DNA of 56,933 nt, filler included, from Platydemus manokwari (Eukaryota): the NCBI GenBank assembly GCA_037951405.1. It is 4 parts of 4 records of this genome, joined end to end, with 100 filler letters (N's around TTAATTAATTAA, not from the genome) between each part and the next. Parts side by side here need not be neighbours in the genome. Positions count along the whole stretch, not along the records: positions 42,028 to 56,933 come from JBBMOY011374758.1; 3 more parts are not named here. The stretch is one strand, 5' to 3'. The translations under genes were made by a program, and so were the position numbers. The first letter of the stretch is position 1; the number at the start of each line of letters is the position of its first letter. Below, in pieces: positions 28,819 through 56,933 of this stretch. The notes beneath the pieces were generated by a model. That model was not told the DNA's origin. It did not search any database and worked only from the letters and a program-made list of their open reading frames with translations.

Positions 28819-29470
28819 GATCAGTTGAAGAATCTCCCTCTGAACAAATCTAGGGGATTTTCTAATTGATTCAAGTTATAGCGGAGATTTTTCAATTGGT
28901 GAACATTTCAGATCCAATCTCATTTCTTTAGGAGGATCTTGAGTAGTTGTGGAGATGAACTAATCTTGTTTTCACCCACAAGTTAAAATACCATTGTAGA
29001 AGAATTCCCGCTACAATTTTATGGGTTTTGGGTATATTTGATACCAGTGTAAGACTCGCAATGGGTTATATATAGATTAAGGATAAGAGATACAGGCGCA
29101 ATTTTACCCATTATTCAAGCAATTGTATGACCTGGATCTATCATCCACACGGAATGATGAAGATCTTACAGGAATTTACAAGGTCTTGGAATTACTCACA
29201 GAACAGTTAACCATTATGTGAACTTCGTTAATCCAATAAACGGAGTTCATACACAACTTGTTGAGTCTTACTGGAACAAATACAAGGCTCAAATAAAGAA
29301 TATGCGTGAGTGTCGAAGAGAAGTGTTGCTATCATTCATATCAGAATTTATATAGAAAGACCGATTTGATTTGAATGTATTTGAAAATCTATGCCAACAC
29401 ATCCACAATAAATAAAGTTGGTTAATATTTGTCTTTTATTAATTTTGGGGTGGAGATTCTTCAATTGATT
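28819..29470 (+). mobile_element. Internally deleted Merlin (IS1595/ISXO2-like) DNA transposon
   Basis: Inverted termini GATCAGTTGAAGAATCTCC / GGAGATTCTTCAATTGATT. Decayed transposase LGGS*VVVEM...LWVLGIFD...PIIQAIV*PGSIIHTE**RSY...HRTVNHYVNFVNPINGVHTQLVESYW...SFISEF matches Merlin PGSxIxTDxWxxY / HxxVNH / VHTxxIESxW motifs. No TSD seen. Confidence 0.88.
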
Positions 29471-32307: not shown

Positions 32308-32407
32308 NNNNNNNNNNNNNNNNNNNNNNNNNNNNNNNNNNNNNNNNNNNNTTAATTAATTAANNNNNNNNNNNNNNNNNNNNNNNNNNNNNNNNNNNNN
32401 NNNNNNN
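32308..32407. other. Assembly gap with TTAATTAATTAA linker
   Basis: 100-nt N block with central linker. Confidence 0.98.
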
Positions 32408-38400: not shown

Positions 38401-39730
38401 AGTTCAATTGACGTAATTTGTTTAATTTAATTAAATTTAAAATAGAGCAAATTTATTAAGAATTTTATTATCAATATTAGCCTTAATTTGGACCAAGGAT
38501 TTAAATTCAATGAATATTCAAACAACACACTCTAATATAACCTTTTTATTCGTAATTAACTCGCATTTATTTATTAATTATTTTATTTAATTAATTATTT
38601 TTATTTAATAGTCGATAATAAATAATAAAACCACTCCCTAAACATATGGATAGAAAAACCAAAATGCTTGAAGAGTCATCCAATGATAATTTGAGACAAT
38701 GATTATTTTGTTTAAATTTTGATTGTTGCTGTGTATTCTATGTTGATGAAGTTTAGTGAAGTATTTTTATAATATAAGTTTAGGATATTTCATTGGTGTT
38801 TAGTGTTTTCGTTGTCGGATCTTTGAATAGTTGAGTAATTTGTTGATAAATATCTTGGAATCGCTATAAATTCCACAATTATGATAATATAATTTTTAAT
38901 GAATTCCTAATCGATATCTTTACTGATTGACTCACGTGCTTGTCTGTATGTCTGTGAAAGCTAATAAAGGATTTTCGAAGTAGTTAATATATTAATTGTG
39001 GTACTATTGAAACTTAACCTACTCTTTTTCTAACGTTTCATTATATAGATTCACACTGAATGAACAACTTTTCCTGATTACTATGTTTTATTTATTACAA
39101 CAATTTTACAGCATATTAATCTCCCCGGGTACAACTCTGATAAGAATTAACAACTGTCCAGAAGTTAGAACACAGTCAAAAATTTCTTTTGACTATACCA
39201 GTACAAACACTACTTCTTGCTGCTATCACTGATTACTCCTGTAACTGTTAGGGTCTCAATAGCACACTCGTTAATTAATTTAAAGTCTCATCTACTTACA
39301 TTGTAATTTTAATTTCTAAAAATAAGCTCAGAAGTGATATTTCTTTTGTTCCAACTGCCCATTTCTTAGATAATACCAAGATGAAATTGAATCATTTTGC
39401 TCATCATTATATCAATCCTTATTTTATGTTAATGTGTATCCATTTATTTTATTTTGTCATAAAGGCTATAATAATAATTATTATTATTATCATTATTATT
39501 AGTTATTTAATTATTTTTTTTAATTATTAATTATTTAATCAGCACATTAATCATTATATTGTTATATTATTGAATTATATTTTATTGGTACTAGTTTTTT
39601 AATAACTATAATTAATAATAATGAAATTTATATAGTAAAAACATAAGTTGTTTCCATCAATATTTTATTTTATTTCAAAATCACACGCGTTTGTTTTTAA
39701 TATTAAAACAAATCTCATTTTTGTTATCTA

Positions 39731-41927
39731 ACTTCCCTCTCCCGTTGTTTTTGAGATCCTTTTTAACCACTCAATTCTTCGAGATTTTGGCTGCCCCTGG
39801 AAACCAAGGAGGACTTGATGTGGGCTTAAAAATTTCAAAACTCTCTGAGAACTTTCATAACGATCTCCATTCTTCTTTATCTTGTGTAGTTCTTTCTTCA
39901 CTAAAACTTCTTCTCCAACTGTGAAAATTCTACAACCTCTTTTTGTAGCATTAAATTTCTTTAAGTTTGTGCCTACTGATTTTAGCTGGTTTTTTGTTTA
40001 TTGGATGATCTGGTCGTGATGGCTTGGTTCATTTAGTCGTGGACATTAATTCTTCGTCCAAACAATATTTCAAAAGGAGAATGTTGAATTGAACTTTGAT
40101 AGGTTGCATTGATGATAAATTTTATCCGCGGTATTAATTTATCCCAAGCCTGTTTCTCTGATGCCATCGTTGTTATCACCATGTCTCTCACCGTCCTAAT
40201 CATCCTTCGGTTAAGCCATTTGTCTTATGTTGGTAAGGAGAGACAAATTCTTGTTTAATTCCAAAACGTATCACTAATTCTTTCATTTCCCTTCTTTCGA
40301 AGACTCTACCCCGATCAGTGAGCATTGATTTTGGGGCATTATACCTATAGATCCATTTATCAATTATGGACTTGGAAATATTTGTTTTGTCTTGTCGAAT
40401 AAGTGGCACCAAGCCTACTAACTTACTGAATCTATCTACAATAACCAACAGATACTTGGTTTTAGTCATAAATTTCGCAAAGTGCGCAACATCTACAACG
40501 ATCTGTTACAGAGGACCAAACCCTTCCTTGGGGATCTTAATCTCTTTAGACTCTCCAGTGTATACCTTCCATTTAGCACAAATATCACAATTCTGTATTC
40601 CATATTCAATGCTTCGTGACAGATTCGATCAGAAGTAAATTTTTTGAATGTAATCAACCAATTTTTTATTACCAATATGCCACAACTCCTCATGAAGGTA
40701 TATTGTAAGTTTCTGCAAATAAACCTCTGGTACAACAATTAGCTTCTTTCCATTCTTATTATACACCACCATATCTTCAAACAACTCATATTTCTCTAAA
40801 CTGTTAAAATATTTGCTTTTCTTGACCACTAAATTAATTTCTGTTCCTGATTTCCCTAACCATTTTTGAATAGAACCAACGACACTTTCTTCTTATTGAA
40901 TCTTCCTTAGTTCGTCATTATTTGCAATTGAATGCTCGACAACATTAATAAACCGGCTTTTTGGTTTACCTTCTTTAGCTGAGTTAAGCATTGTGAACAA
41001 AATGCTTCACCTATCCTTGAAAGTACATGTGCATTTCTATGATCTGATCCTTTCCGATATTGAAGTTCGAAATTGAACCCGGATAAGTTTGAAAACCATG
41101 TTTGAAACTGAGTGCTTATCAGTTTGTTATTTTTTATAATGTATGTCAAGGCTTTGTGATCGGTGCGAGTCACAAATTTCTTTCCCAACAAATAATGTTT
41201 AAAATACATAGTAAGCTTGTGGATTCCCAAAACTCTTTCCTCGTGACGCAATAACTTTTTTCATGATTGTTAAGAGTTCTAGAACCATTGGCCACTACTA
41301 TCTCTTTTCCATTGTCATCCAGCTGACTTAGAACACATTAAATCGCTCCGAAACTAGCATCCGTGTCTAAAATCATCTCTTTGTTTGGATCCTGAAAGGC
41401 CAAAATCCTTAAGGTTTCCAAAACTTTCATCACAATCTGTACTCCACTCCAATTTCTAGTCACTTCCAGTCATCGTCGCATATGACGGAGCCGTAATAAA
41501 TGCATAATCTTTGATAAATCTTCTGTAATAATTGCATAATCTTATGAACGACCTCAATTGAATGATACAACCAGGTTCTATTGCTTCCTTAATCTTCTTT
41601 ACTTTGCCGTTATCAGTTTCTAAACCTTCTGCACTAACCGTATGACCTAGGAAATTCAATTTTCTGGTACCAAAAGTGCATTTCTCGGGATTGATTTTCA
41701 AACCTGATGATTTAATTAACCTGAATATCTTTTCGAGTTTCTCATTGTGTTTCTCTACCGTTCTTTCATACACTAAAATATCATCCAGATAAGCAAGAAC
41801 ACTTTTGTAAATCGAGTCCTTGAATATAGTATTCATTCTGAATCGTTGCGGTACATAATCCAAAAGGTAGTCTGTTAAAACAGAACTGCCCAGTTCTAGT
41901 GCTGAAAGCCGTTTTCATTTTAGAATC
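39731..41927 (-). mobile_element. Decayed Ty3/gypsy LTR retrotransposon, pol region to polypurine tract (5' part lost in gap)
   Basis: Domain order RT-RNaseH-IN. RT: KTAFST..FCFNRLPFG, LAYLDDILVY, INPEKC, FLGH. RNase H: DTDAS..VLSQ, FKHYLLGKKFVTRTDHKAL. Integrase: HEELWHIG, VIVDRFSK, LTDRG, SPYQHKTNGLTE. PPT GGGAGAGGGAAG at 39732-39743. Multiple frameshifts. Confidence 0.95.
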
Positions 41928-42027
41928 NNNNNNNNNNNNNNNNNNNNNNNNNNNNNNNNNNNNNNNNNNNNTTAATTAATTAANNNNNNNNNNNNNNNNN
42001 NNNNNNNNNNNNNNNNNNNNNNNNNNN
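41928..42027. other. Assembly gap with TTAATTAATTAA linker
   Basis: 100-nt N block with central linker. Confidence 0.98.
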
Positions 42028-45000
42028 TTTCCATTTATTATCACATGTATTACAAGAACTGATATAATTGGTCAAAATTATTTTTTTTGTTTTAATTTCT
42101 TATTTATTTTATTTTTAAATTTAAATTTAGGATTTGGGTTAGATAACATTGATAAGATCATGATATTCTGTTATATCACCTGTGTAGCTAAAATCATCAT
42201 ACGCCATTATTATTTACCGAGAAAACTTAAAAGAACCTTTGTTAAACACGAATACAACCATACATACAGACAACTCGAAACAAATCGAATGACAAATGTC
42301 CATAATAATAAGACACACAAACACATATTAACAAACGAAAATCCAATCAAAATTGTCCAAATTATAAAGCACAAATGAAAATCATTAAAGAAATGAATTT
42401 AAGTCGAACCAACAATAGAATTGTCGCAAGAGCTTACTTGTAGAAAAATATTACAAAATTGATCAACTTTGTACAGATTTGTATAATTTTACATAAAATT
42501 CTTTTACTTGGCATTCAATAAGAAATTTACGTGTGTTCTTTCAATGAATCGATTCATTGATAGACCGCCTTTCGTGATTACCAGTTTTAATAAAATATTA
42601 TTGATTAAATTATTTTCGACGATTCGTCGGTCCCTTTACGATTATTATAATAAAAAATAATATGTGATGATTTTGAAATCAATCAATATTTAAATGATTA
42701 TTTTAAATTGAAAATATATTGTTATTAAATGATATAAATGATCAATATAATTTATTAGAATGTTTCATCAAATATATTTTGTGGTTTGAAATTCTTGAAT
42801 TCCTTTTCAATTCATATTAAATGAAGTGATATCAGCTTGCTATGGTGACCATGAATTTGGAATCGATTCTAATACAATGAGTAATAGAATAGATCAAATG
42901 AAGATATATGATAGATATAATTCAGATGTGATATGTGAGATTTATATACAGATAAATGTATAAGGAATACTGACAAAGAGAATAGAGATAGTATTTTGAG
43001 AATCTCAGATGGAGAATGCAGATAAATATAAAGTGAATTTGTTAACAAATTATTTGATGATTTTTATGTAAAATTGGGTGTGAGGATTCAGAAATCAAAC
43101 ATTATTATTTAAACGATCGATTTAATTTGTTTGAATATTTGGATTAAATGCTGTATTTCCACCTGAACTGCTGAGTCTCAAAGATTAGTCTGTAGGCGAA
43201 GATCAGGAGCTACAGATTTGGTTTTAATAAACCATTTTTGATTAGCTGATTATGTATCTATCAATCTATAATTATTTATGCCTTTTCGAAAATATTCTGG
43301 AGATTTATTTATCTTATTTGGAATAAATGTTTATCGATATTCAGTTTGATTGTTGTGGACATTGATTTGGCATTAAAAATCGTTATTTTTAGTAGAAATC
43401 ATTAACTTTCTCGTTTGAACAAAGGTAATTATCGATGAGATTGTGTTTTGATCCAATTAAATATTTCACAAATAATTTGTCGAATGTGTTTGTTTGTCGT
43501 CTTTATGCTCAATAATGGTCGAGAAAAACACTGGCATTGTTTCATCTGATATTCAAAGCTAAAAATTATTGTTCACTGGCAGTTTTGGCTGTCAGTTTCG
43601 AAAGAAAAGAATGAATTTGAAATGGATATTTACGTGATGTCTTACGATTAAAAAAAATACATATTAATAACTTTGGAAAAACCTCTTTGAAGAGATTAAG
43701 TTTTAACATGTTATTGATTGGTAAAAGATATATTGGTAAATATATTTGAGCATTGTTAATGTGAAGGTTTCGATGGTTGGTTGATTGAAACTGAGGTGCT
43801 GATTTCGTTGTCCTTTCTAATCATCAATATCTTATAGGTCAACACCTCCCAAGCATTCGAACCAAATACTCAACCGAAAAAATCGATATAACTTACTTAT
43901 GATTTGTGAGCATCTGTTATGGATTTTTAATAAATGTTCGAGATTTTTTCTCAAAGATATTTTTTTCGTTTAGACCACCGTCTATCCAGTACGTTAATCT
44001 TTTTTCGATAAACACTACTAGATTGTTAAAGGTTAATATACGTTTATCATATCGATATTCCAGAACACTCATTCGAATCGCTAAAATTGAATTTTCCCAT
44101 CTTAAATTGAGAGATTAGATTCTGATTTTATTGGATAAAATTTCAAAATATGTTCCTTGGATTGTATTGAGTCGATAAGGAGAAATTGTTATGTCACTGA
44201 AATTCAAAACAGGACACCAATGAGTGACATGATCTTTATTGATAATAATTATCTAAAATTATTAACAAATACGAAAAGGGAATCTCTGTTTTGTACAATA
44301 TATATTCCGGCGAAATATAATTGTCTTTATATTATCAAATATATGTGCTGTAAAATCCCGAATGTAAGCTCTAAGCTATTCGTGTAAAAATATGATGTGC
44401 TGCTTGTAAGACTAAAATCCGTTTGATTTCAGGTATGAAATAATGGAAATGCTAAAAACACGAAAACCATTTCAAGATAACTTATTTATTTATCTCAATT
44501 CTTTTAAACAACAAAATTCATGCCTTCCATGAAATTATCAGCCAATGAGAGCTTGCCATAAATCCTTTAAGTTTCATCTCTTTGACAATGGTATTTGTCT
44601 GTAATCGAATTCATATAACTGATACTTGGAGTTCTCGTTCACATTGCATTAACATTACCATTCATGTAATTTCCATTTCGGATATCTAGTATTATCACCG
44701 CTCAATATGCCTTTATTCGTATTCATTGCTTTGTTAGCAGGTGTCTTTGACAGTCCACAGTTGAATTGCAGTTTCGTTGATATCATGTCATCGATCAGCT
44801 TAAAATCAGTGGAAATTTTATTAATTTTCTACAATTGAATAAATATAATCTTATATAGGTGCGTGTGTGTGTTATCGTTATTATTAAAATTGTTGGTTAC
44901 TCTAAACAGTATTGCTCACATGAAAAGGCATACTCGAGTCATCAGTGATTGGTCAAAACAATATCTAAATTGCATTAAATAATGCGAAATTATAAAAATA

Positions 45001-47496
45001 ATAATTTTAATCATAACATCACGTTGTCGCTTATCATTTAACCATGTAACTTACATTAAAAAATTGAATAATTGTTAATAATATTGATAATTAATAATTA
45101 TTTTAACTTATTTCGATTTCAAAGAACATATCTGTTGAACAAATACCGATTGATCTCAAATGAAAGTTGTATATTTTTCTGTGGATTGAAAATTTTATCG
45201 ATCTGTATAACTGAGACAAATATATTTCTGATCAATTTAAAGTTCGACAATTTCTTTTTGTCAAAATTAGATCAAATTATTGATTCTTCATATTATTATA
45301 AAAAATTCAATATGAAGACTTATAATCGATTGTTTCTTGTAATTATTTGTTTAAATTAATATTAATTTTTTTCATCTCTAATTGGATAATAATTTATTAT
45401 TTTATTACAATTTGTATTAATAAATATAATTATATTAGATGAATATATGATTGGTCTTAATCTTTTTAATTATTTTCTTTATTTATTATTATATTATACT
45501 ACTTTATATTAATTTATAAGTAATATTAAATTATAAAATTTTTATATTTGCTTTTGATAATATTGTTTACAATCAAGCATTACTCTTTAATATTGGATTT
45601 CAAAAACAGCCACAATTTTTAAATAATATTTATAATTTTTATTATTAATTTTATTATTATCTTTGATTTTTGGCTAAAGTTATTGGTGCTGAGTGATATT
45701 ACCATATCAGATTTTATATTAATCATAATAATTTAAAATATTGTTGGATAAATATTATTAGATTATCGAGTCTGGCATTACTCATTTATCATATTAAATT
45801 TCTCACAACTATAAAAGCTCGCACTGAAATAATCCATAAACAAGTCTGATTATAACGATTTGTTAATTATCTCATTTGAAACAACAAAATAATCTCAATA
45901 AAGTGAGGAACACTTTATTAACTGCTAATAGTTTATTAACGGGATCTCATTTCACATACCTGTTATAAACTACCAGCTGGGAAAATTTTTCTGGGAACTA
46001 TTACAAATGCCCATGTCATAAACGGACATTATCTATACAGCAATACCGATTCGCTTGACGCTAACCATAAAATATCGTTAATTATGTCTTTCTAACTCAT
46101 TAAAAAATAACATATTTCCTTCATTGATTTTTCTTTGAGTTAGAATGACATTTTGCCATTCTTTACCATTCTTTAAATACCATTTTTCACGCATGTATAC
46201 ATCTTTTCGGTGTGCCAATTGCTATAGTTCCACAATGGTCACGTTTTCACAAAGTTATCGTGATGGTTACTAATTTCTTCTCTAAGTGTATGTATGTGTG
46301 TGTATTTGAAGATTTTGAATTATTATCTTTATTTTCATGATAATATGTCATGCAATCATGTTTTATATTCATATGTTTGGTTAAATTTATTTTCATGGGT
46401 TTTATTAAATTATTGTCTTGCACCTATCTAGCTGTTTCCCACTCATCTTATAATCTCGTAGATTTTTATATTTATAAATTAAATTTACATATCAATAATT
46501 ATTATTATCACTATTAATATTATCTAAAACCTAACTGGATATTTCCCGCTGTTATTTTTAGCGCTACTTGTTAGTCATTTGTACTTTTTTGTTGCTGAAC
46601 TTACTCCCGTGCTTACCTCTAAAAATATCTGATTACAACGAGATAAAAGGCACTTTTTATATCTAATATAATGTATGATTATGATTAGGAAATTTTCTCA
46701 TTTTCTCAATAAAAATCGATAAAATCTACGCCCCTTAATTTGTTAGATTATTAACAATATTTCTCCTCTAAAAGTCAAATAATTCTGCAACAGTTTCGTA
46801 AATAATTATCAATTTTGAATTGATAATTTAGGGCGTATGAAATTGTAATGCGTTTTGTGATGAAAAATGAGACAAAAATAGCTGATAAATTGATAGATTT
46901 CTGATATAAGTTAAATCATCGCAGCTGTTGTTGATGCTGTTCGAAGGTTGCAATGAATTAAGCTCGTACTGACAAATATCAATCTAAGTAAAGTCGATTC
47001 AAATTAGACCTTTAAGAGAAAGAAATTTCAAAACATCAAACATCACGAATGATCACGAGAAAATATAACTGCTAATAGTGATTAGAGTGGAGAATGAAAT
47101 TATAAGTGAATTATTATTTATGTTATTAATAAATCTAGTTTCATTCGCTACCGATTATTAAAACATATGAATGGTGTTTTGAGAAATGATAATTATTTGA
47201 GATTTCTTTATAATTATCTGAATTATTATATTGAAATGGTTTGAAACTATACGGAGTGGAATGGAGCTGAAATATTTTGTGAAATTGCTCAAACTTTATT
47301 GATATATCGATTAGGAAATGTTTTTAACTATATAATTTATTGAATATCTGATTGAGAAATGTTTATATTTTGTTGAAAGAATCTCACTGATTTGCTTATA
47401 AAAGCTGATATTATAATTACAAAATTTACCATTATTATTACTATTATTATTATCTTTATTATTATTATTATCTAATTATTATTATCATTGTTATTA

Positions 47497-47652
47497 NNNN
47501 NNNNNNNNNNNNNNNNNNNNNNNNNNNNNNNNNNNNNNNNNNNNNNNNNNNNNNNNNNNNNNNNNNNNNNNNNNNNNNNNNNNNNNNNNNNNNNNNNNNN
47601 NNNNNNNNNNNNNNNNNNNNNNNNNNNNNNNNNNNNNNNNNNNNNNNNNNNN
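47497..47652. other. Intra-scaffold N gap (156 nt, no linker) next to an ATT repeat
   Basis: N run preceded by (ATT)n-like sequence. Confidence 0.97.
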
Positions 47653-48859
47653 TCCTCGTTTAGCTGTCCCTAGATTTTAAATATTTATGGCTGAAAATGC
47701 AAATATGGCTGTAGGTTGCGATAATAATACTATTGATTCCACAAGGCAGTGTAAACCTTTATATTATTAATAATATGTCAATATATAATCAACATATTAT
47801 GATCAAAATAACACAAAATAAGATCAATAAAATACATTCCAGATGATAATAACAAAGTAGATTTCATAATGATTGAATTACTTTCCAGCTAAAGTATTCT
47901 TAATTATTGCATATTATAACGAGATCGACATAGTGTCAACTTTGCTTACCAATGCATGCGTTGGAGAAAAATATAAGGCGGTGTTGATAATTTTTTGAGT
48001 CTTATTGATATAAATGAACAATAGGTGAAATGTGATGGAACGATTTATGGACTAGAATTATTAAGTTTTAGACAAAATAACAATGACCGCTGTGCATTAT
48101 TAAATGGGTTGTAAAAATGAATTGTAGAAACGAACTGGATTATCGAATATCCAAAAGGGATTTTCTTCAATCAACCTCATAGTGTGTACAGACAATACCT
48201 CAATGACATGAAATATGATCGTAAATTGTGTTGAAATTTATTAAGAAAATCATTTCCGAAATTCGTTTGTGCTTTATTTCATGTTTCGTTGTTAGTTTGA
48301 TAGTAAATATAAAGATTAAAAATCTGGTATTTCTCGATACAAAAAATTTCGTTGCTGTGGATATATTGGGTGTCAAGTGATTGATTAATGAGTTAGCAAG
48401 TTGAGAATATTATCAGTAGATCTTTGTAATTCTTATAATTATAATCATAATTATTACTAGTATTATTATCATTTTTATTTAATTTAATAATAATAATTAT
48501 TATTATTATTAATATTTTAATTATTAGACATTTTCTACTCTATTAACTAGAGTGCTTTGATAAATAAGGATTAATTAATATATATTAATATTATTCGAGT
48601 TTTAAGGAAAATCTCGTGATAATAAATGATATATCTGACATTCTTGCTCACTGAAGTTTTAGAGATGCCGATATTTTGTTTCTTTTGCCAAAAATAGTTT
48701 GTTGGAAATGACCAACAGATTTTGTAATAATTTTTTCAACCCAAAAAATACTTGAATTGTTGACACATAATGGAAAATGATCATTATTATTTATGAGGAT
48801 TATTATTTTTAAATGAAATTGAATTTTTATTTACAATAATGTACGATTTTGTTTTCCAG

Positions 48860-48999
48860 CTCGACAGATTTAAGGAGCCACCAGCATATGGTCCTATGTG
48901 TGATCTACTGTGGTCAGATCCTTTGGAAGATTTTGGCAATGAGAAAACGTCGGAGCATTTTTGCCACAACAGTGTTCGCGGTTGTTCATACTTTTTCAG
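48860..48999 (+). CDS. PPP3CA: Internal exon of calcineurin A (PP2B catalytic subunit, PPP3C/CanA family)
   Basis: 140-nt exon flanked by TTTTCCAG and GTGATT, encoding [46 protein letters not shown], nearly identical to animal calcineurin A. Neighbouring exons were not found in the window. The symbol denotes the family, not a resolved paralogue. Confidence 0.95.
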
Positions 49000-49563
49000 G
49001 TGATTAAAATCATTATTTTTGTACTTACCTTGATATTGATTAGTAAGGGTAGCCGTTAATGATATTTATCAGTAAAAAAATGACAAAAAAATTATTTCAA
49101 ATTCACTCCATTGTTTATGAAATTGTTATTTATCAAGGAAATCGACCAGTCAAATCGAAACATAAATAATATTTCTCTCAAAAATATGATTGCATGATTT
49201 CGTTCTCAATTTATATGATTCTATTTTATGTTCTGTATTGATTTTTATAAAATTATTTTTCATTAATGTTTATTAAAACACACACACACACACACAAAAG
49301 AAACAGAAATATAAATAATATGAAGTTTAGATTATAATTTTCTCTTCTTTATCTCATAGATTTTATTTTTATATTTATTTTGTTGTATCTTATATTGCGA
49401 GTGGATAACTGTTTTGCTTGTTCATATTTATAATACCACCAGGTGTTTTCAAGGTGAATTTATGCTCATTTATTTATGCATTTCTAATTATTCTTGTTTG
49501 TTATCACATTGTTTTATTGATAAAGTTTTGATTTTTGAAATTTTATTTAATTTCTTTCGAAAT

Positions 49564-49854
49564 ATGAAATAATAGTAATAATAATAATAATAATGATCAC
49601 TATAATGACAATAATAATGATAATAATAATTATTATTATTATTATCACTATAATGATAATAATAATGATAATAGTAATTATAATGATGATGATGATGATA
49701 ATGTTAATAATAATAATAATGACAATGTTAATAATAATGGTGATAGTAATAATAATGATCACTATAATGATAATAATAATGGTAATAGTAATTATAATGA
49801 TGATGATGATAATAATGATAATAATTATTATTATTACAATGATAAAAGTAATAA
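49564..49854. repeat. Degenerate (AAT/GAT)n trinucleotide tract with internal duplication
   Basis: AAT/GAT/AGT triplets; blocks such as ATCACTATAATGATAATAATAATG and ATAGTAATTATAATGATGATGATGAT recur. Confidence 0.9.
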
Positions 49855-50562
49855 TGTTGGGTCTACCGACTGTAGAGCGCAACAGTTCTCGTAATCACCT
49901 GACTCAAAAATCAAAACAAAGTTGTTGCTCACTAAGTTATATTTCTACAAAATTTACAACTTAGATTTAATTACACAAGGACCTAGCCCCTAATAAAGTT
50001 CTGTCAACAAAATACGGATCAGGTCCGTGCACCAAATTGAATTACTGGCCGAGGACTACTCCTGGTCTATACTACAATACCAGCGTGCGTAACGGTTTAC
50101 GGACGCTCAATATACTCTTCGATACACTACCGATATTCGGAGGCACTGTCCGCGAATATCACTATACAATTTAAATACTAATATTCGGGATTCACTATCC
50201 ACGAATATTCTACTACTAGATAATTTACTGTTTCCAATATTCGGGAATGCTTCTTCCTCGAATAATACACTACTTGCTAAAAATAAAAAGAAATAACCTG
50301 ATTCTTCTAGGCTTCTGATTAAAAACAAATCAAATCTTCTTTTGCAAATTCAAATTAATATTCTTCTTCTAGGCTTCTGATAAAATCCAAATCAAATCTT
50401 CTTTCTTGCTCCTGATTAATTGTTCTGATAGCTTTTTCCTTGCCTGGTTCTGCTAATTGTGACTTGTTCTCCACAAGTCCGTCTTTTTATACTATTCTTG
50501 TGCTCGCACCACTTGCAGCACATTTTTCTAACCTGAGTTGGCATGTAGGTTCAACGCCTACA
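49855..50562 (-). mobile_element. Solo-LTR-like element (708 bp) with internal hairpins and direct repeats
   Basis: Locally GC-richer block bounded on the minus strand by TGTAGG...CCAACA. TATAAAAAG box ~70 nt from the 5' end (50481-50491). A ~43-bp direct repeat at 50301 and 50363; three related hairpins at 50132-50266. No TSD found. Confidence 0.5.
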
Positions 50563-50992
50563 TTTGGATCAATATCACCCGATATTGATCGACAATTACT
50601 GTCTTGAAATCTTGGATTCTATTTAATTATTTTACTTTGCTAAAACAAATTTTATTTTCTAAATATAATTTAAAATTTCTTATTTCTCTTTATTTATCAA
50701 ATATTTTTTTCTTATTAAAAATTTAATTTTAAAATTATTTTTATACTTTATTTATTTTTAGAAAAATAAATTTATTTCCTTTATCTTTAGACTTATGTTT
50801 ATTCTTTAATAATTCACTCTTGTTTATCTTTAATTATTTTTAAAATATGAACTCTTCATTATTATTATTATTATTGTTATTATTATTATTAATATTATTA
50901 GGCGGCATAATAAAACGTTATACGACCTTAAAAATATATAGAGAAATAGGATAGTACAATACATATTTTTAAAAAGTGGTTCTAAACTCAAC

Positions 50993-51700
50993 TCAAAACT
51001 CAGTTCCTTTAACATTTAATACATGTATTTGAACATCAACATTTTCATTGAAAAAATTCTCCGCTTCAGATCGAGTAATCATATCGACAGAGTCCTCCGA
51101 TTCGTCACTCATAATTTCGGTACTCGGTGCAGATACATAGAATCTCGGAATGGGAATCAAATTCTCTTGATTTTCGAAACGATAAGGAAAGTCTTGATCT
51201 TGTTGTCGAGTTTGAAATTTAAATAATTGTTTGTATTCGTTAGAATTTCTACGATTAACATAATATTCAATATCATTATGTATAAGTGGCAATTTCAAAC
51301 ACACATAATGCGGAGTAATTATCAGATAATCAGCAAAACACGCAGGATTAAAACAGCACACAGGCAAAAATCCATGCTTATTTTCATGTCGTGGATAATG
51401 AGGATTACATAAAGTACATGCTTTGTGAAACATAGAATAACTTATACGCTTTACAGTAACCATGCGCTAATTAATACATTGACCAAAAGTATGTTTATTA
51501 TAAAGATTATTATTACAACTAAAACATTTAATCTTCGAAACATATTTTCGTTTACAAATCAAAGGTCGAGATAAAATCAATTGTTGGATTCCGACATTCG
51601 AGCGTCTCCATCGTTCGTATCGTCCAACGTTGGCGATTCCATTTTCAAGGCCACTGGGGTAAGTATGGATTTTCCATTGGCGAGACTGAAGAATCCTTAA
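50993..51700 (-). pseudogene. Cys/His-rich ORF downstream of Rep, one internal stop; function unknown
   Basis: Track ORFs 51467-51754 and 50993-51463 are in the same frame, separated by a single TAG. They contain CFSC...HKACTLC..H...CCFNPAC and an acidic C-terminus (SDESEDS). Start codon uncertain. Confidence 0.55.
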
Positions 51701-52755
51701 TGTACAATAAATCATCAAATTTATGCACGACAGTTCGCCTCTCGATTGCTGCACGGTGTTCTAATAACATTTTGGGCAAACCAGCATCCCAATTGTTGGT
51801 TTTAATAATCCTAGACATGAACATGGGTATTTCTGTGTACCCGTATTTAATATTGCACGAATATTGCCTTTTGAGATCACAAAGGTGGATAATTTCCGTG
51901 GCATGAAATCCCTTGAGCGTAAAATCATCAAAACTATATCATCTGTGATGGAGGGATCTTGTGATACTCGAGATAAGTTTTGAGAACAACTGGCCAAAAT
52001 TGGATTATTAAAATGAGATAAAGCATAATTAGTTTTCTCGATTCCAGTATGCCCTTGAAAGATGTGCGTTCTCCCATCTCATACATTTAAAGGAGGATTT
52101 TTGAACTTGTGATAATTTTTTTTGGCTGGCTCTCCATAATGAGTTGTAAGAGTTTCATTTATAGCTTTTCTTTTAAGCATAAATTCTTTCGGGTCAGAAG
52201 TTCTCAACAATAGCATTGCTTCATTTTTATTTTTACAATTATAGGCCATCCGCCATGGATTATTACAATCAACATCTTTGATTGAATTTGAAGAAGAACC
52301 AGATTGCCCGTCATTTGCCATTGTATTTTTAAAAAAAACACTCGTTGCTTTGACATTATCGAGCCGCTTATTGGTAGTTGTACCCAATTGACTAATTTGA
52401 ATTGGAGGATATTCTTTCAATCTGGTTTCGTCTTTTTGCGTGTACTCAAAAACTTTAATTTTATCTTTACCTGAAGATTAAAACAACGATAATTAATCAT
52501 AACCAAATTATCCCCAGAATTAACCAACCTGGATTTGGTTTCACTTAGTTGACTCCCAATAAGTTTCTGGCCGTGCCGAAAAACATGGCATACTTCATTA
52601 CTAGAAATATTGCACGTGTTCGAAATTCTTTTCAGACATTTCAACTTGCCCATAGAAATAGGTGCAATTTTTGGTCCTTATTTCCATAAATTTGTCTCGC
52701 ATCAACTCGAAATCATCATTATTATTATTATTATGGATTCGACTTGCTATCGCTT
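51645..52755 (-). pseudogene. rep: Endogenous CRESS-DNA-virus-like Rep (HUH endonuclease + SF3 helicase), decayed, with one putative intron (52471-52528)
   Basis: Reconstructed motifs in the canonical order: motif-I-like RIHNN; YFYGQVE; motif II EHVQY (52610-52618); motif III EYTQKDETR (52433-52444); Walker A GHTGIEKT (52031-52054); Walker B IVFDD (~51930); IIHLCD..NIKY..IP; motif C IIKTN; Arg finger AIERR; stop at 51645. Two in-frame stops and two 1-nt frameshifts. Confidence 0.88.
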
Positions 52756-54582
52756 ATTAATTCACTTTAGTAATTTTTTGATTTGAAGACGTTATATTAC
52801 ACTTAATACTTTGAAGTTTATTTTAATTCATAGCGGCTTTTAAAATTTATACAGAAATTCTGGTTAAAGTTAAGAAGTGAAATCCTAAAAAAATTTGAAA
52901 TTTGTTGTTTGTGTTGCAAAAAAGTTTATTTAATTATACTGATTAAAAACATTTTGAATTTTTTATTTGAGTACCTAAGCAGAATTTTAGTTGTTTGGAA
53001 TCAAATATTAAATAACTAGAGCTTTAAAATCTTGTAGAAATTGATTATTTAAAAAACGGCTCAAAGTATGCCAAATAGCAATTTATTGAAAATTAGTGAT
53101 AACCACATTTTTAAAATCGTTAATCCATATTTTTAAACTTTGTTTTATATTAAAAGTGATTGGAGAAATAATAATGCATCGAAATATAATCGGTGCCGAA
53201 ATATCATATTGAAACTAATGAGGTCTTCTTCGAAAGGGTAAAGTGTAAGCGCGATGGACGAAGACCAAGTATTTGGGTTGCTGAAGGATTCATATGATGC
53301 AATAAGAGGAATTTCAATCGAATTCCAGAAATTTTATGTGAAAATTTTATATAATAACGTTAGAAATAAATTTTGAAATTAAACACACGAAAATTTATGA
53401 ATTTACTTAACCGAAATTCTTGATGAAATTAATCCACATTATTCTTGAATAATTATATTTTGTACATATTATAGTAATATATATTCCTAAACAATTTTCA
53501 TTGATAAAATACCAATTTTCAAACCAAAACACATACTGATCATGAATCGTGGGCTTGACTTAAGTAAGATTGAATTTAATTTTATGAAATGATAAGATAA
53601 TATGACTGATATTGAGAATGATTGTAAATTGTGGATAAATCCATTTGTATTCAGTGGAATTGATTAATTCTAAAAATAAAACACATCAAAATATAACAAA
53701 TCAACTTTCATATACAATATGAAATTATTTTGGAAGAGTTAAGAAAATTATTTAATTGCTATTTCAATAAAGATAAACAAATCTCATTTGCCCTTAAACT
53801 ATATCCTTAAGCATCATTTGTGTACTCAATATCAAATTGCAACGAATTATACTAGTCGTCTCATAATGCTGGTATAATTTTTTGTATCTATCGATAATTA
53901 GATTAATTTTATAACAGAATGAATATATTTCGATATTTCGTTTTGGTTTATTTTTGAAAAATATAAGTTCTACAATACTAACGAAAAATCAGACAATAAT
54001 ATTCGATGAAGACTACCGCTAATGATAATAATATTACATGATTACATAAATCATCAATAAATCCCATTAATCCCATAAATTGTTCAGGGAAATTCGGCTT
54101 TCGCTTTGTTAATAGTAAATATATTACCCATGAAATATACAATGGTTTCCTGTTTCAATAAATTAAACATCTTTTACTGATTATTTCTGAAGAATTTAAT
54201 TTCTAACAAATACTACATGGTTTGTTTTAGATAAATTTCATTTAATTTTATTCTCGAATTTTTATCTTTTTGAAATGGATTTTTAAATATTTATTTAATG
54301 AAAAATTTATTATTTATTAGTGATTTTCTAAGTCAACGAGGCTCTTGCTAGAAATAAAATTGAATAAAATTTATTGAATAAATATTATATTTATTGAAAA
54401 CAATACAAAGGGATTTTATTAGATTCTTCATCCCCATTTATAATAACACCAACACATACAATTTATAATAAATGTAGTATGTTTCGTAAACATTATCATA
54501 ATATATATAGTAAAAACATCGATTGTTTGCATCAAAATTTATGGTTTCTAAAATAACACGAGTTTTTTCGCATATCTAAAGT

Positions 54583-54668
54583 TTATCTAACCTTCTCTCC
54601 CGTTGTTTTTGAGATCTTTTTAGCGATTCAATTCTTCTATAATTTGGTTGTTCCTGGTAATCAAGAAG
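54583..54668 (-). mobile_element. Second fragment of the same gypsy family (PPT/3' end)
   Basis: TTATCTAACCTTCTCTCCCGTTGTTTTTGAGATCTTTTTAGCGATTCAATTCTTC closely matches 39724-39810. Confidence 0.8.
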
Positions 54669-55469
54669 CGGGAATTTAATAACTCAATTTTTTGAATTTT
54701 TTGCTGGTTAATTTACTTTTAGAAACTATATATAAGAACAGCTATTATTAAAAATCTTATGCCTCTTTTCCTCACTCAGTTGAGGCCTAGATATATCTTA
54801 AATTGGATTATAAAAGTCAAATTCGAATCCTCAAATATGTAATTATTATTTTATTTTATTAATTTTTAATAACTTTACCATAAAAATAAAAACCTGTCAT
54901 TATAAAAGTGATAATAGAAACGAGAATAGTAACAATGGTAATAATAATGATAATACAAATAAAACACAAATTACAAATAAATAAAACTCTGATATTTGCG
55001 ATCAATGGTTGATCGTTCCATAATTAAGCTGATTGTAACCCAGTAGCAAAAACACAGTTCATTAATTGCTACATAAGCTATTGAAAATGCAATTAAATTT
55101 CACAACTAGTGTTATTTTCTTTTTATAGCTTAAATAATTTATAGGAACCATACCTGGATAATAGAATTAATAACCTCTCTCGAGGAGGACAGTTTGAATA
55201 ATCTTAATGTGCTGATATTAATAAAATAAAGTTTAAACATATTAGGAAATTTCGTAAAGGAAATATTAATAATAATTTTTAGCCTCTACTATTTTAAAAA
55301 CCACTCATTAAAAATAAACTGAAAAGTCAAGACACCACAAATCTATTTTAATACAAATAATTAAACAAATAAATATAATTTTATATAAATATGATTTTAT
55401 ATTAAATCCGAATTAAATTATAAATAAAATTTTAATTATGTAAAATTTTAATTCACAAAAAATTTAATT

Positions 55470-55480
55470 TAATAATAATC

Positions 55481-55523
<43 letters not shown>

Positions 55524-55562
55524 TAATAATAATAATGGTAATAAACACAATAATGATAATAA
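55470..55562. repeat. (AAT)n microsatellite
   Basis: Near-perfect AAT run. Confidence 0.9.
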
Positions 55563-56156
55563 TTATAAATTTATTGTTTCTATATCATTTGTTATAAAAT
55601 TTAAAGTTTTACTCAAATTGACATCAAGTAATAGTATAGTGATCAACTTATGATCAAGTCTAGTTGAATTCCGTAATACAACGGCGTCATCTGGTGTCTC
55701 GAAAGAAGTCCAGTATATAGAAAACATGCATAAGGAACAATATTAAACTCTTGTATCAATAAAGAGTGTTTCCCGAAAATTATTTCTCAAAGATTTTGAT
55801 TTAAAAGAATTAATCAGAAAATTAAAGATGATTTACACTGAAAATTGTTCCTGGAAAACTTTTAATCGTAGATATTTAAGGCGCATTTCGAAATAATTTT
55901 TTAAAATAATTTTTATTAAGAATTAAGTTTTGAGATAAAGATGTTCTTGCCGCTTTACTTTTAATTTGTTAGAATAGTTGAAAGACTAGGTAATTGACAG
56001 ATAATCTTCTATCTTCCGTGGCATTGAGATATATCGATTTTCATTGGTTTGCAATAACTGACGATGGTATTCTAACAATAAGTTGATATTTTGGAGACAT
56101 CTGTTAAGTTTCTGGTACGTGCACTATTTGAGTATGTGTATATTGACCCTTTTTGG

Positions 56157-56523
56157 CAGCGGTTCTTAGTCTTTTATCTATGGCGACCCATTTTTCCATT
56201 TTTAAGGTCTCGGAGACCCCAAAGAACATCAATATTACTAAATATAACTAAATATCATTTGATTTACATTTCATTGATTTACAACAAGTAATGAATTACC
56301 TATTATAATAAGATTATTATTATTATTATTATTACATTGCCTATAAAATACTTAACTGTAGTAGTCAAGGTAATCGTGAACAGAAGTAGTTTAGTCAACA
56401 TCACAAACTATTTATTTAATAGCATCATAAAACATGATTTTTCACATTAAATGGTTTGTACACCTACCATAATTTGGCGACCCCTTTAAAAATGCTTACC
56501 GATTCCGGGGTTGAGAACCACTA
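56157..56523. mobile_element. hAT (Charlie-like) MITE
   Basis: Termini CAGCGGTTCTTA / TGAGAACCACTA with subterminal GGCGACCC motifs at 56182 and 56476. TSD not evident. Confidence 0.65.
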
Positions 56524-56529
56524 AGGGTT

Positions 56530-56933
56530 ATTTCATGGTCTTTGTAAGTATTAAGTTGTTTTAATCAGAATCTCTTCAACGGTGTCAACTATCGAATTGA
56601 TATTTGGATTTTTGTTATTGCATTATACATTTGAAGTTAATTTGGATGTAATATTGATTTTAAATTGGATTTTAATTCTGATCTACTTTTAGTAATACAA
56701 TTCGTTTTAATGTATATGAAAACAGACTTAATTAGTGATTTCAAATGACATTTAAAATTAAAATGAAAGAATTAGCATTTAAAGTCTCTGGAAATTTACT
56801 TCAATTTTAGTATTCTCACATCCCCCTTTCTTTAAAATCTTTAATTTTCTTTGTAGTCTTACTTGACATATTTATCTCCGAAAATGTCTTTAATTTCTCT
56901 CCCTTTTATATCTTTTCTAAATCTTCTTTATGT
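56530..56933 (-). mobile_element. Probable PPT and start of the 3' LTR of another LTR retroelement
   Basis: Minus strand reads AAAAGAAAGGGGGA|TGTGAGAA with the junction at 56821/56820, a classic PPT-TG boundary. The other end of the LTR is undefined. Confidence 0.45.

Follow-up and report, generated by a model that had tools for sequence, protein, structure and literature searches.

A putative 58-nt intron inside the endonuclease domain of a decayed viral Rep gene in Platydemus manokwari

Introduction

In mastreviruses, and usually in genomoviruses, the intron of the Rep gene lies downstream of motif III. On this basis, the first-pass annotation of the DNA treated here took an intron between motifs II and III to be distinct in position. 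Published descriptions of other small single-stranded DNA (ssDNA) viruses contradict this. In cyclovirus CN9E, a 56-nt GT-AG intron between motifs II and III has been predicted after 217 nt of the coding sequence, that is, in phase 1 in codon 73; by our count by eye, the motif II His is residue 44 and the motif III Tyr is residue 83 (PMC8622408). CN9E is a free virus of ambisense organisation that has a capsid and a stem-loop, and its intron, like the one proposed here, is a prediction. In the Reps of cyclovirus Mon-58 and of a bat cyclovirus, 161 nt of the coding sequence precede the split (PMC8471302), and the genomovirus BcssDV1 was found both with and without a 381-nt Rep intron, which we infer to lie within about the first 60 of its 380 codons (PMC8262958). 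As far as the coordinates in these two sources go, the introns of Mon-58 and BcssDV1 would also lie inside the endonuclease domain. Spliced Reps have further been predicted in 36 cruciviruses (PMC7468197), free viruses in most of which the helicase motifs fall in exon 2, and in 10 of 45 ant cycloviruses (bioRxiv 2022.12.13.520061).

Degraded Rep fossils are common in eukaryotes, and among the fossils of circular ssDNA viruses in eukaryotic genomes 302 Rep sequences contrast with three capsid sequences (PMC3198968, PMC6186406, PMC8384839). The planarian element PEVE belongs to this setting as an invertebrate element with integrated kin, PIVE (PMC3198968). The word “intron” is absent from the main text of that survey, and we found no intron-bearing CRESS fossil in the open-access literature, which is weak evidence of absence. 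Here, we describe a Rep fossil that carries a putative short intron in nearly the same place as CN9E.

A decayed Rep gene and its 58-nt segment

The DNA analysed, hereafter the window, is a stretch of 56,933 nt (filler included) from the Platydemus manokwari assembly GCA_037951405.1; positions 42,028 to 56,933, in which the Rep gene lies, come from JBBMOY011374758.1. The features of the gene are as follows.

52529..52750, minus strand: upstream Rep exon remnant, with motif II (HxQ) at 52618-52610
52471..52528, minus strand: putative U2 intron of 58 nt, phase 1, donor GTTGGT, acceptor CTTCAG
52497..52499, minus strand: stop codon inside the segment, reached from the upstream frame
52492..52496, minus strand: branch-point-like YTRAY, 26 nt before the acceptor end
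52469..52531, minus strand: 5-bp direct repeat CAGGT (52531-52527 and 52473-52469) spanning both junctions
51645..52470, minus strand: downstream Rep exon remnant, with motif III (YxxK) at 52444-52433
minus strand, SF3 helicase motifs: Walker A (decayed) at 52054-52031, Walker B at 51929, motif C Asn at 51797, Arg finger at 51740

The locus is a pseudogene of a small ssDNA virus of the CRESS-DNA type: HUH endonuclease motifs II and III and the fused SF3 helicase motifs are present, and, besides the 58-nt segment, there are at least four breaks. Two of these lie in the upstream exon (a frameshift near 52603 and a stop at 52547) and two in the downstream exon (a stop at 52081 and a frameshift near 51933). 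Motif I was not recognised; the profile match starts at 52726 and the region upstream is stop-ridden. Like the eukaryotic fossils, the locus has a degraded Rep; no capsid gene was recognised beside it. There is no second copy within the window.

The linker between motif III and Walker A (52430-52250, minus strand) has 130 residues, compared with 95-109 in four relatives (21-35 longer); it is open and A-rich and is read as a coding expansion. Extra introns were considered upstream of motif II (12 candidates) and in the linker (five in-frame candidates), but none was T-rich and all were set aside. A tentative lengthening of the Rep C-terminus through a frameshift found no support.

The first-pass annotation had described a 58-nt GT-AG segment between motifs II and III whose removal restores the frame and a plausible spacing of the motifs, and this is confirmed; it had made no mention of the two breaks in the exon immediately upstream (near 52603 and at 52547). 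The segment is flanked on the minus strand by the motif II His (52618) and the motif III Tyr (52444), the latter nine codons downstream; its length is 1 modulo 3, and its omission leaves a His-to-Tyr spacing of 39, as in the two nearest relatives. From the upstream frame, an unspliced transcript would end at the stop inside the segment, before motif III. Of the other two frames, one has four stops and the other is open, running from 52677 to 52420. The branch-point consensus YTRAY is frequent in AT-rich DNA, and the 58 nt hold three matches to it (the other two at -11 and -53). At the donor, position +3 is T instead of the common purine. The composition of the segment departs from that of the A-rich gene around it: 28 of the 58 nucleotides (48%) are T, compared with 28.5% in the remainder of the Rep. 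None of 941 non-overlapping 58-nt windows reached 28 T, the highest count being 27, and this T-richness resembles that of the host intron described below. The CAGGT repeat at both junctions is compatible with an ordinary AG/GT context or with a target duplication.

Relatives and placement of the Rep

A phmmer search with the unbroken helicase piece retrieved 15 Reps among its 16 hits; the remaining one (P0011, with ankyrin repeats) was discarded as spurious. Profile searches contributed eight further relatives. In a tree of 22 rows, in which the window Rep was entered with X at its breaks, from which P0002 and P0025 (both short), P0011, and P0001 were omitted, and which has no circovirid Rep among its rows, the window Rep falls in a six-row clade with P0022, P0007, P0019, P0020, and P0021 (100/99). 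The clade Reps are up to 44% identical to it over 167 columns, and P0002 is 47% identical across the helicase piece. Two other relatives, P0005 and P0006, are long Reps with an intact helicase and no recognisable motif II; they may have lost endonuclease activity or been domesticated. In P0019 and P0021, the N-terminus leaves the family pattern shortly ahead of the motif II hairpin, and an intron at another site is a possible reason; in P0019, a two-residue variation would explain it equally well.

The predicted structure of P0019 (pLDDT 73.9) matches known Rep domains. Its N-domain aligns with the nanovirus Rep nuclease (Z 11.6, rmsd 1.8, 88 aligned) and with the circovirus Rep nuclease (Z 10.3, rmsd 3.3, 96 aligned), and the model aligns with the PCV2 ATPase (Z 10.2, rmsd 2.9, 118 aligned). 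In this model, the exon junction would fall on residue 72, the first residue of a helix (72-82) bearing Tyr81. The top Foldseek match in the PDB for the relative is PCV2 Rep; among viral folds, unclassified CRESS Reps match best and circovirid entries rank low. For the two models, the Rep of PEVE (Q910M2) comes at rank 8 (27% identity) and rank 10 (30% identity, E 0.027) of the viral fold matches, and it is no closer than unclassified CRESS Reps from bird swabs (36-37% identity). As for the other marks of the PEVE/PIVE type, no terminal inverted repeat of that kind is among the 25 of 57 inverted pairs listed for 49900-54500, and no ORF for a second, E1-like helicase was seen.

Three further features were looked for. 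Between motifs II and III, at a spacing of 39, there is no stretch resembling the GRS motif of the Geminiviridae and Genomoviridae; the pattern used in the scan matched none of the compared proteins. No nonamer-like match sits in a convincing hairpin between 49000 and 55500, so that an origin stem-loop was not found there; it could have decayed or sit outside the insert. The frames neighbouring the Rep gave no Pfam, PHROG, or significant PDB match, and no capsid gene was recognised on the opposite strand. Because GRS motif, origin hairpin, and capsid gene were not found, the Rep is placed in no named family; it belongs to an unclassified clade.

Broader searches added little. There was no match for eight pieces of the element in Pfam, for the helicase piece in a word search, for the element against phages and plasmids in tblastn, or for seven window frames in PHROGs, and PDB sequence searches with the element pieces gave chance matches only. 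A first scan of GTDB yielded none of 83 candidates and a second yielded one of 14, a distant 976-bp locus without the motif III region. On this contig (L001, 1-665), which sits in a bacterial metagenome-assembled genome, a Rep relative has a motif-II-like stretch shortly before Walker A, in another frame and with the middle missing; it is probably a contaminant of viral origin, either defective or misassembled.

The segment is extra to the protein

The first-pass annotation had proposed an alignment of homologues, in which the intron would fall if they ran through the 58 nt as coding sequence. The alignment has now been made, and the relatives do not do so. With the motif III Tyr as anchor, the upstream flank scored best at offset 0 of 30 in all four of the nearest relatives that span the site (30, 35, 11, and 22, compared with next-best scores of 10, 6, 8, and 0), with a thin margin in P0007 (11 vs. 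8, over 10 residues). A profile of 12 relatives matched the Rep without the segment gaplessly across 79 positions (40.5 bits), whereas four readings that keep the segment reached 19.9-29.3 bits and required an insertion of 18-20 residues. Thirteen of 15 relatives have a His-to-Tyr spacing of 37-47 (the other two have no His); in the window Rep, the spacing is 39 without the segment and about 58 with it. Judged from these alignments, the 58 nt contribute nothing to the encoded protein.

The site is uninterrupted in all four of these relatives, which could be RNA-derived, where the window Rep has its 58 nt. This speaks against an ancestral intron inherited from the virus.

In CN9E, the likeness extends to several details: a short phase-1 GT-AG intron (56 nt) between motifs II and III and a His-to-Tyr spacing of 39. 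The CN9E intron lies 10 codons before the Tyr, whereas that of the window Rep lies nine codons before it, and by local alignment the two are 1-2 codons apart; they are probably independent gains. The introns of Mon-58 and BcssDV1 are canonical, as here, but they occupy other sites, are 100 and 381 nt long, and belong to free viruses.

Neighbourhood of the element and host signals

The surroundings of the Rep gene contain the following features.

50993..51760, minus strand: Cys/His-rich second reading frame, directly after the Rep, broken by a stop
48860..48999, plus strand: host calcineurin A exon; the element lies about 2 kb downstream on the opposite strand
8328..8370, plus strand: host intron of 43 nt (GTTAGT..TTTTAG) in a tetraspanin-like gene

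The Cys/His-rich frame matched no family, homologue, or database entry; from its adjacency and GC content, it is probably part of the element. Cys-rich tails occur in several relatives (P0005, P0006, P0008, and P0013), and that of P0005 resembles the frame by eye, though without statistical significance (E 0.13). Further along, the GC content is higher (up to 43%) in 49960-50620, a stretch that holds a broken frame on the minus strand and a duplication of 62-bp period at 50291-50404. It has no Pfam, PHROG, or Rfam match and could represent either a third section of the element or a separate relic.

The calcineurin A exon is animal-like (96 bits to mammalian entries vs. at most 78 to the next group, which we take to be fungal). 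A scan of the window for motifs of the other exons gave no further calcineurin A exon, so that the element may sit within a long intron of the host gene, in antisense orientation; the lone exon implies either that the introns are very long and contain nested genes or that the scaffold is fragmented.

The 43-nt intron, which the first-pass annotation had assigned to a host tetraspanin, stands as an intron between exons at 8160-8454 (plus strand), while the tetraspanin label has only a CCG motif and a Pfam match below the cut-off (E 0.081) behind it. Host splice signals in the window comprise the donors GTTAGT, GTATGT, and GTGATT and the acceptors TTTTAG and TTCCAG. For the view of the first-pass annotation that the element was adapted to host splicing, the sample for comparison consists of one 43-nt host intron and three donors, and a length of 56-58 nt also fits a free virus.

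It should also be mentioned that the window contains other relics. An IS1595/ISXO2-like transposase relic lies at 29161-29352 (plus strand; Pfam E 2.8e-6), presumably of the Merlin type, and a broken LTR retrotransposon pol at 39700-41930 (minus strand), with reverse transcriptase (E 5e-14) and integrase (E 7e-12) in an order that is Ty3/gypsy-like by eye. A single-exon hydrophobic ORF of 314 residues at 16789-17730 (minus strand) resembles a seven-transmembrane receptor by eye and has no Pfam match. Three gaps of one and the same build (44 N, 12 bases, and again 44 N) at 14124-14223, 32308-32407, and 41928-42027, and a gap of 156 N at 47497-47652, are read as assembly or masking marks.

A probable carried-in viral intron and its alternatives

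On the sequence evidence, the segment is very likely a real U2 intron. More specifically, we favour, at a probability of about 0.7, a genuine short spliceosomal intron in the rep gene of a nuclear ssDNA replicon, viral or virus-like, from an unclassified lineage, carried into the genome by the element itself. A nuclear ssDNA replicon would transcribe rep with the host polymerase, and the host spliceosome would remove the 58 nt. Both the nicking and the helicase activity would depend on this step, since the junction opens the predicted helix of the catalytic Tyr and translation of an unspliced message would end within the intron. The element would have entered the germline as DNA with its intron, and the gene would then have decayed. 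Mastrevirus RepA is an active unspliced product; in contrast, the unspliced product of the window Rep could hardly be an active endonuclease. By analogy, the window Rep may have worked like a spliced cyclovirus Rep. We infer actual splicing, the presence of the intron in the free virus, and any regulatory role.

The first-pass annotation read the retained intron as a sign of integration at the DNA level rather than from cDNA. Our observations agree (the copy is unspliced, the second ORF follows directly, and there is no poly(A) run longer than 5 near the ends), but they add little, because DNA-level integration is already the default for ssDNA viruses.

An unlikely alternative is a real intron that arose only once the element had integrated, during a period when the host still transcribed it; a short insertion that duplicated CAGGT, and so created its own splice sites, could have produced it. 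The 5-bp direct repeat at both junctions, the absence of an insertion here from all four nearest relatives, and the resemblance of the donor to the host donor GTTAGT would all fit. On the contrary, CAG/GT at both ends is the usual consensus of exon-intron junctions, and no match of the segment longer than 15 nt occurs elsewhere in the window, nor any Rfam match. The Rep layout is also compact and virus-like, with no other T-rich candidate in the linker (five) or upstream (12), which likewise argues against a gain in the host. A tandem duplication was considered as the origin of the segment and rejected (identity to the flanks only 17/58 and 15/58).

A 58-nt neutral insert into a dead pseudogene, intron-like in appearance and never spliced, is improbable. 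The locus does collect indels, as its two frameshifts and two stops show, and the host DNA is AT-rich. The question is how easily such DNA would produce the signature by chance, and two null models were used: random slices of the window set between the real flanks (n = 5000) and shuffled segments (n = 5000), each counted at spacings of 37-41 and at 39 exactly. Bare GT..AG was found in 2340 and 762 of the random slices (15-47%) and in 3637 and 1353 of the shuffles, so that it is weak evidence here, easily obtained by chance. With a YAG acceptor and a pyrimidine tract (8 of 12 pyrimidines), the counts dropped to 168 and 41 for the slices and to 422 and 105 for the shuffles; with G at donor position +5 in addition, they were 4 and 0 and 38 and 8, respectively. 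The segment itself passes the GT donor, YAG acceptor, 8-of-12 pyrimidine, and +5G tests; these strict criteria are canonical, although they were picked with the sequence already known. An earlier run of 2000 samples agrees with these results. Among the 38 frame-compatible omissions of 58 nt, only that of 52471..52528 has GT..AG ends; two longer GT..AG options (64 and 76 nt) use the same donor and give spacings of 37 and 33. Against a neutral insert, in other words, stand the scarcity of the full signature in the exact register (41 of 5000 slices, and none with +5G) and the fact that GT..AG sits on the sole register that restores the exact spacing of the relatives.

The weakest alternative, that the 58 nt are an in-protein insertion read through the open frame with compensating frameshifts, is highly improbable even though the linker after motif III does hold a coding expansion of 21-35 residues: it is largely refuted by the profile scores (19.9 bits for the open frame vs. 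40.5) and the flank-offset test, its spacing of about 58 lies beyond the largest value (47) among the 13 relatives measured, and the site would be the start of the modelled catalytic helix.

Implications

Short introns at nearly the same Rep site have already been described in free viruses, and what is novel here is the fossil example; known CRESS gene structure is left unchanged by the finding. Taken further, the locus might belong to an unclassified Rep lineage that infects invertebrates and in which introns are gained and lost at various sites, and be its first germline fossil with an intron; a hotspot for short phase-1 introns, at the start of the catalytic helix, would then be shared by convergence with the cycloviruses, whose site is 1-2 codons away. 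We regard this wider reading as doubtful; the one additional observation that points to it is the divergence of the N-termini of P0019 and P0021 before motif II, somewhat like a read-through of the CN9E intron. If the hotspot were true, Rep activity would have been made dependent on host splicing.

The putative intron of the carried-in element links an unclassified Rep clade, otherwise known here from contigs, to the nucleus of an animal-like host. It also adds a case backed by homology to the Rep introns, most of which have been annotated by eye, and it warns that screens based on ORFs only will overlook or truncate such Reps. Should the closeness to the cyclovirus site turn out to be a pattern, these genes would offer a small system for the study of intron gain in fast-evolving viruses.
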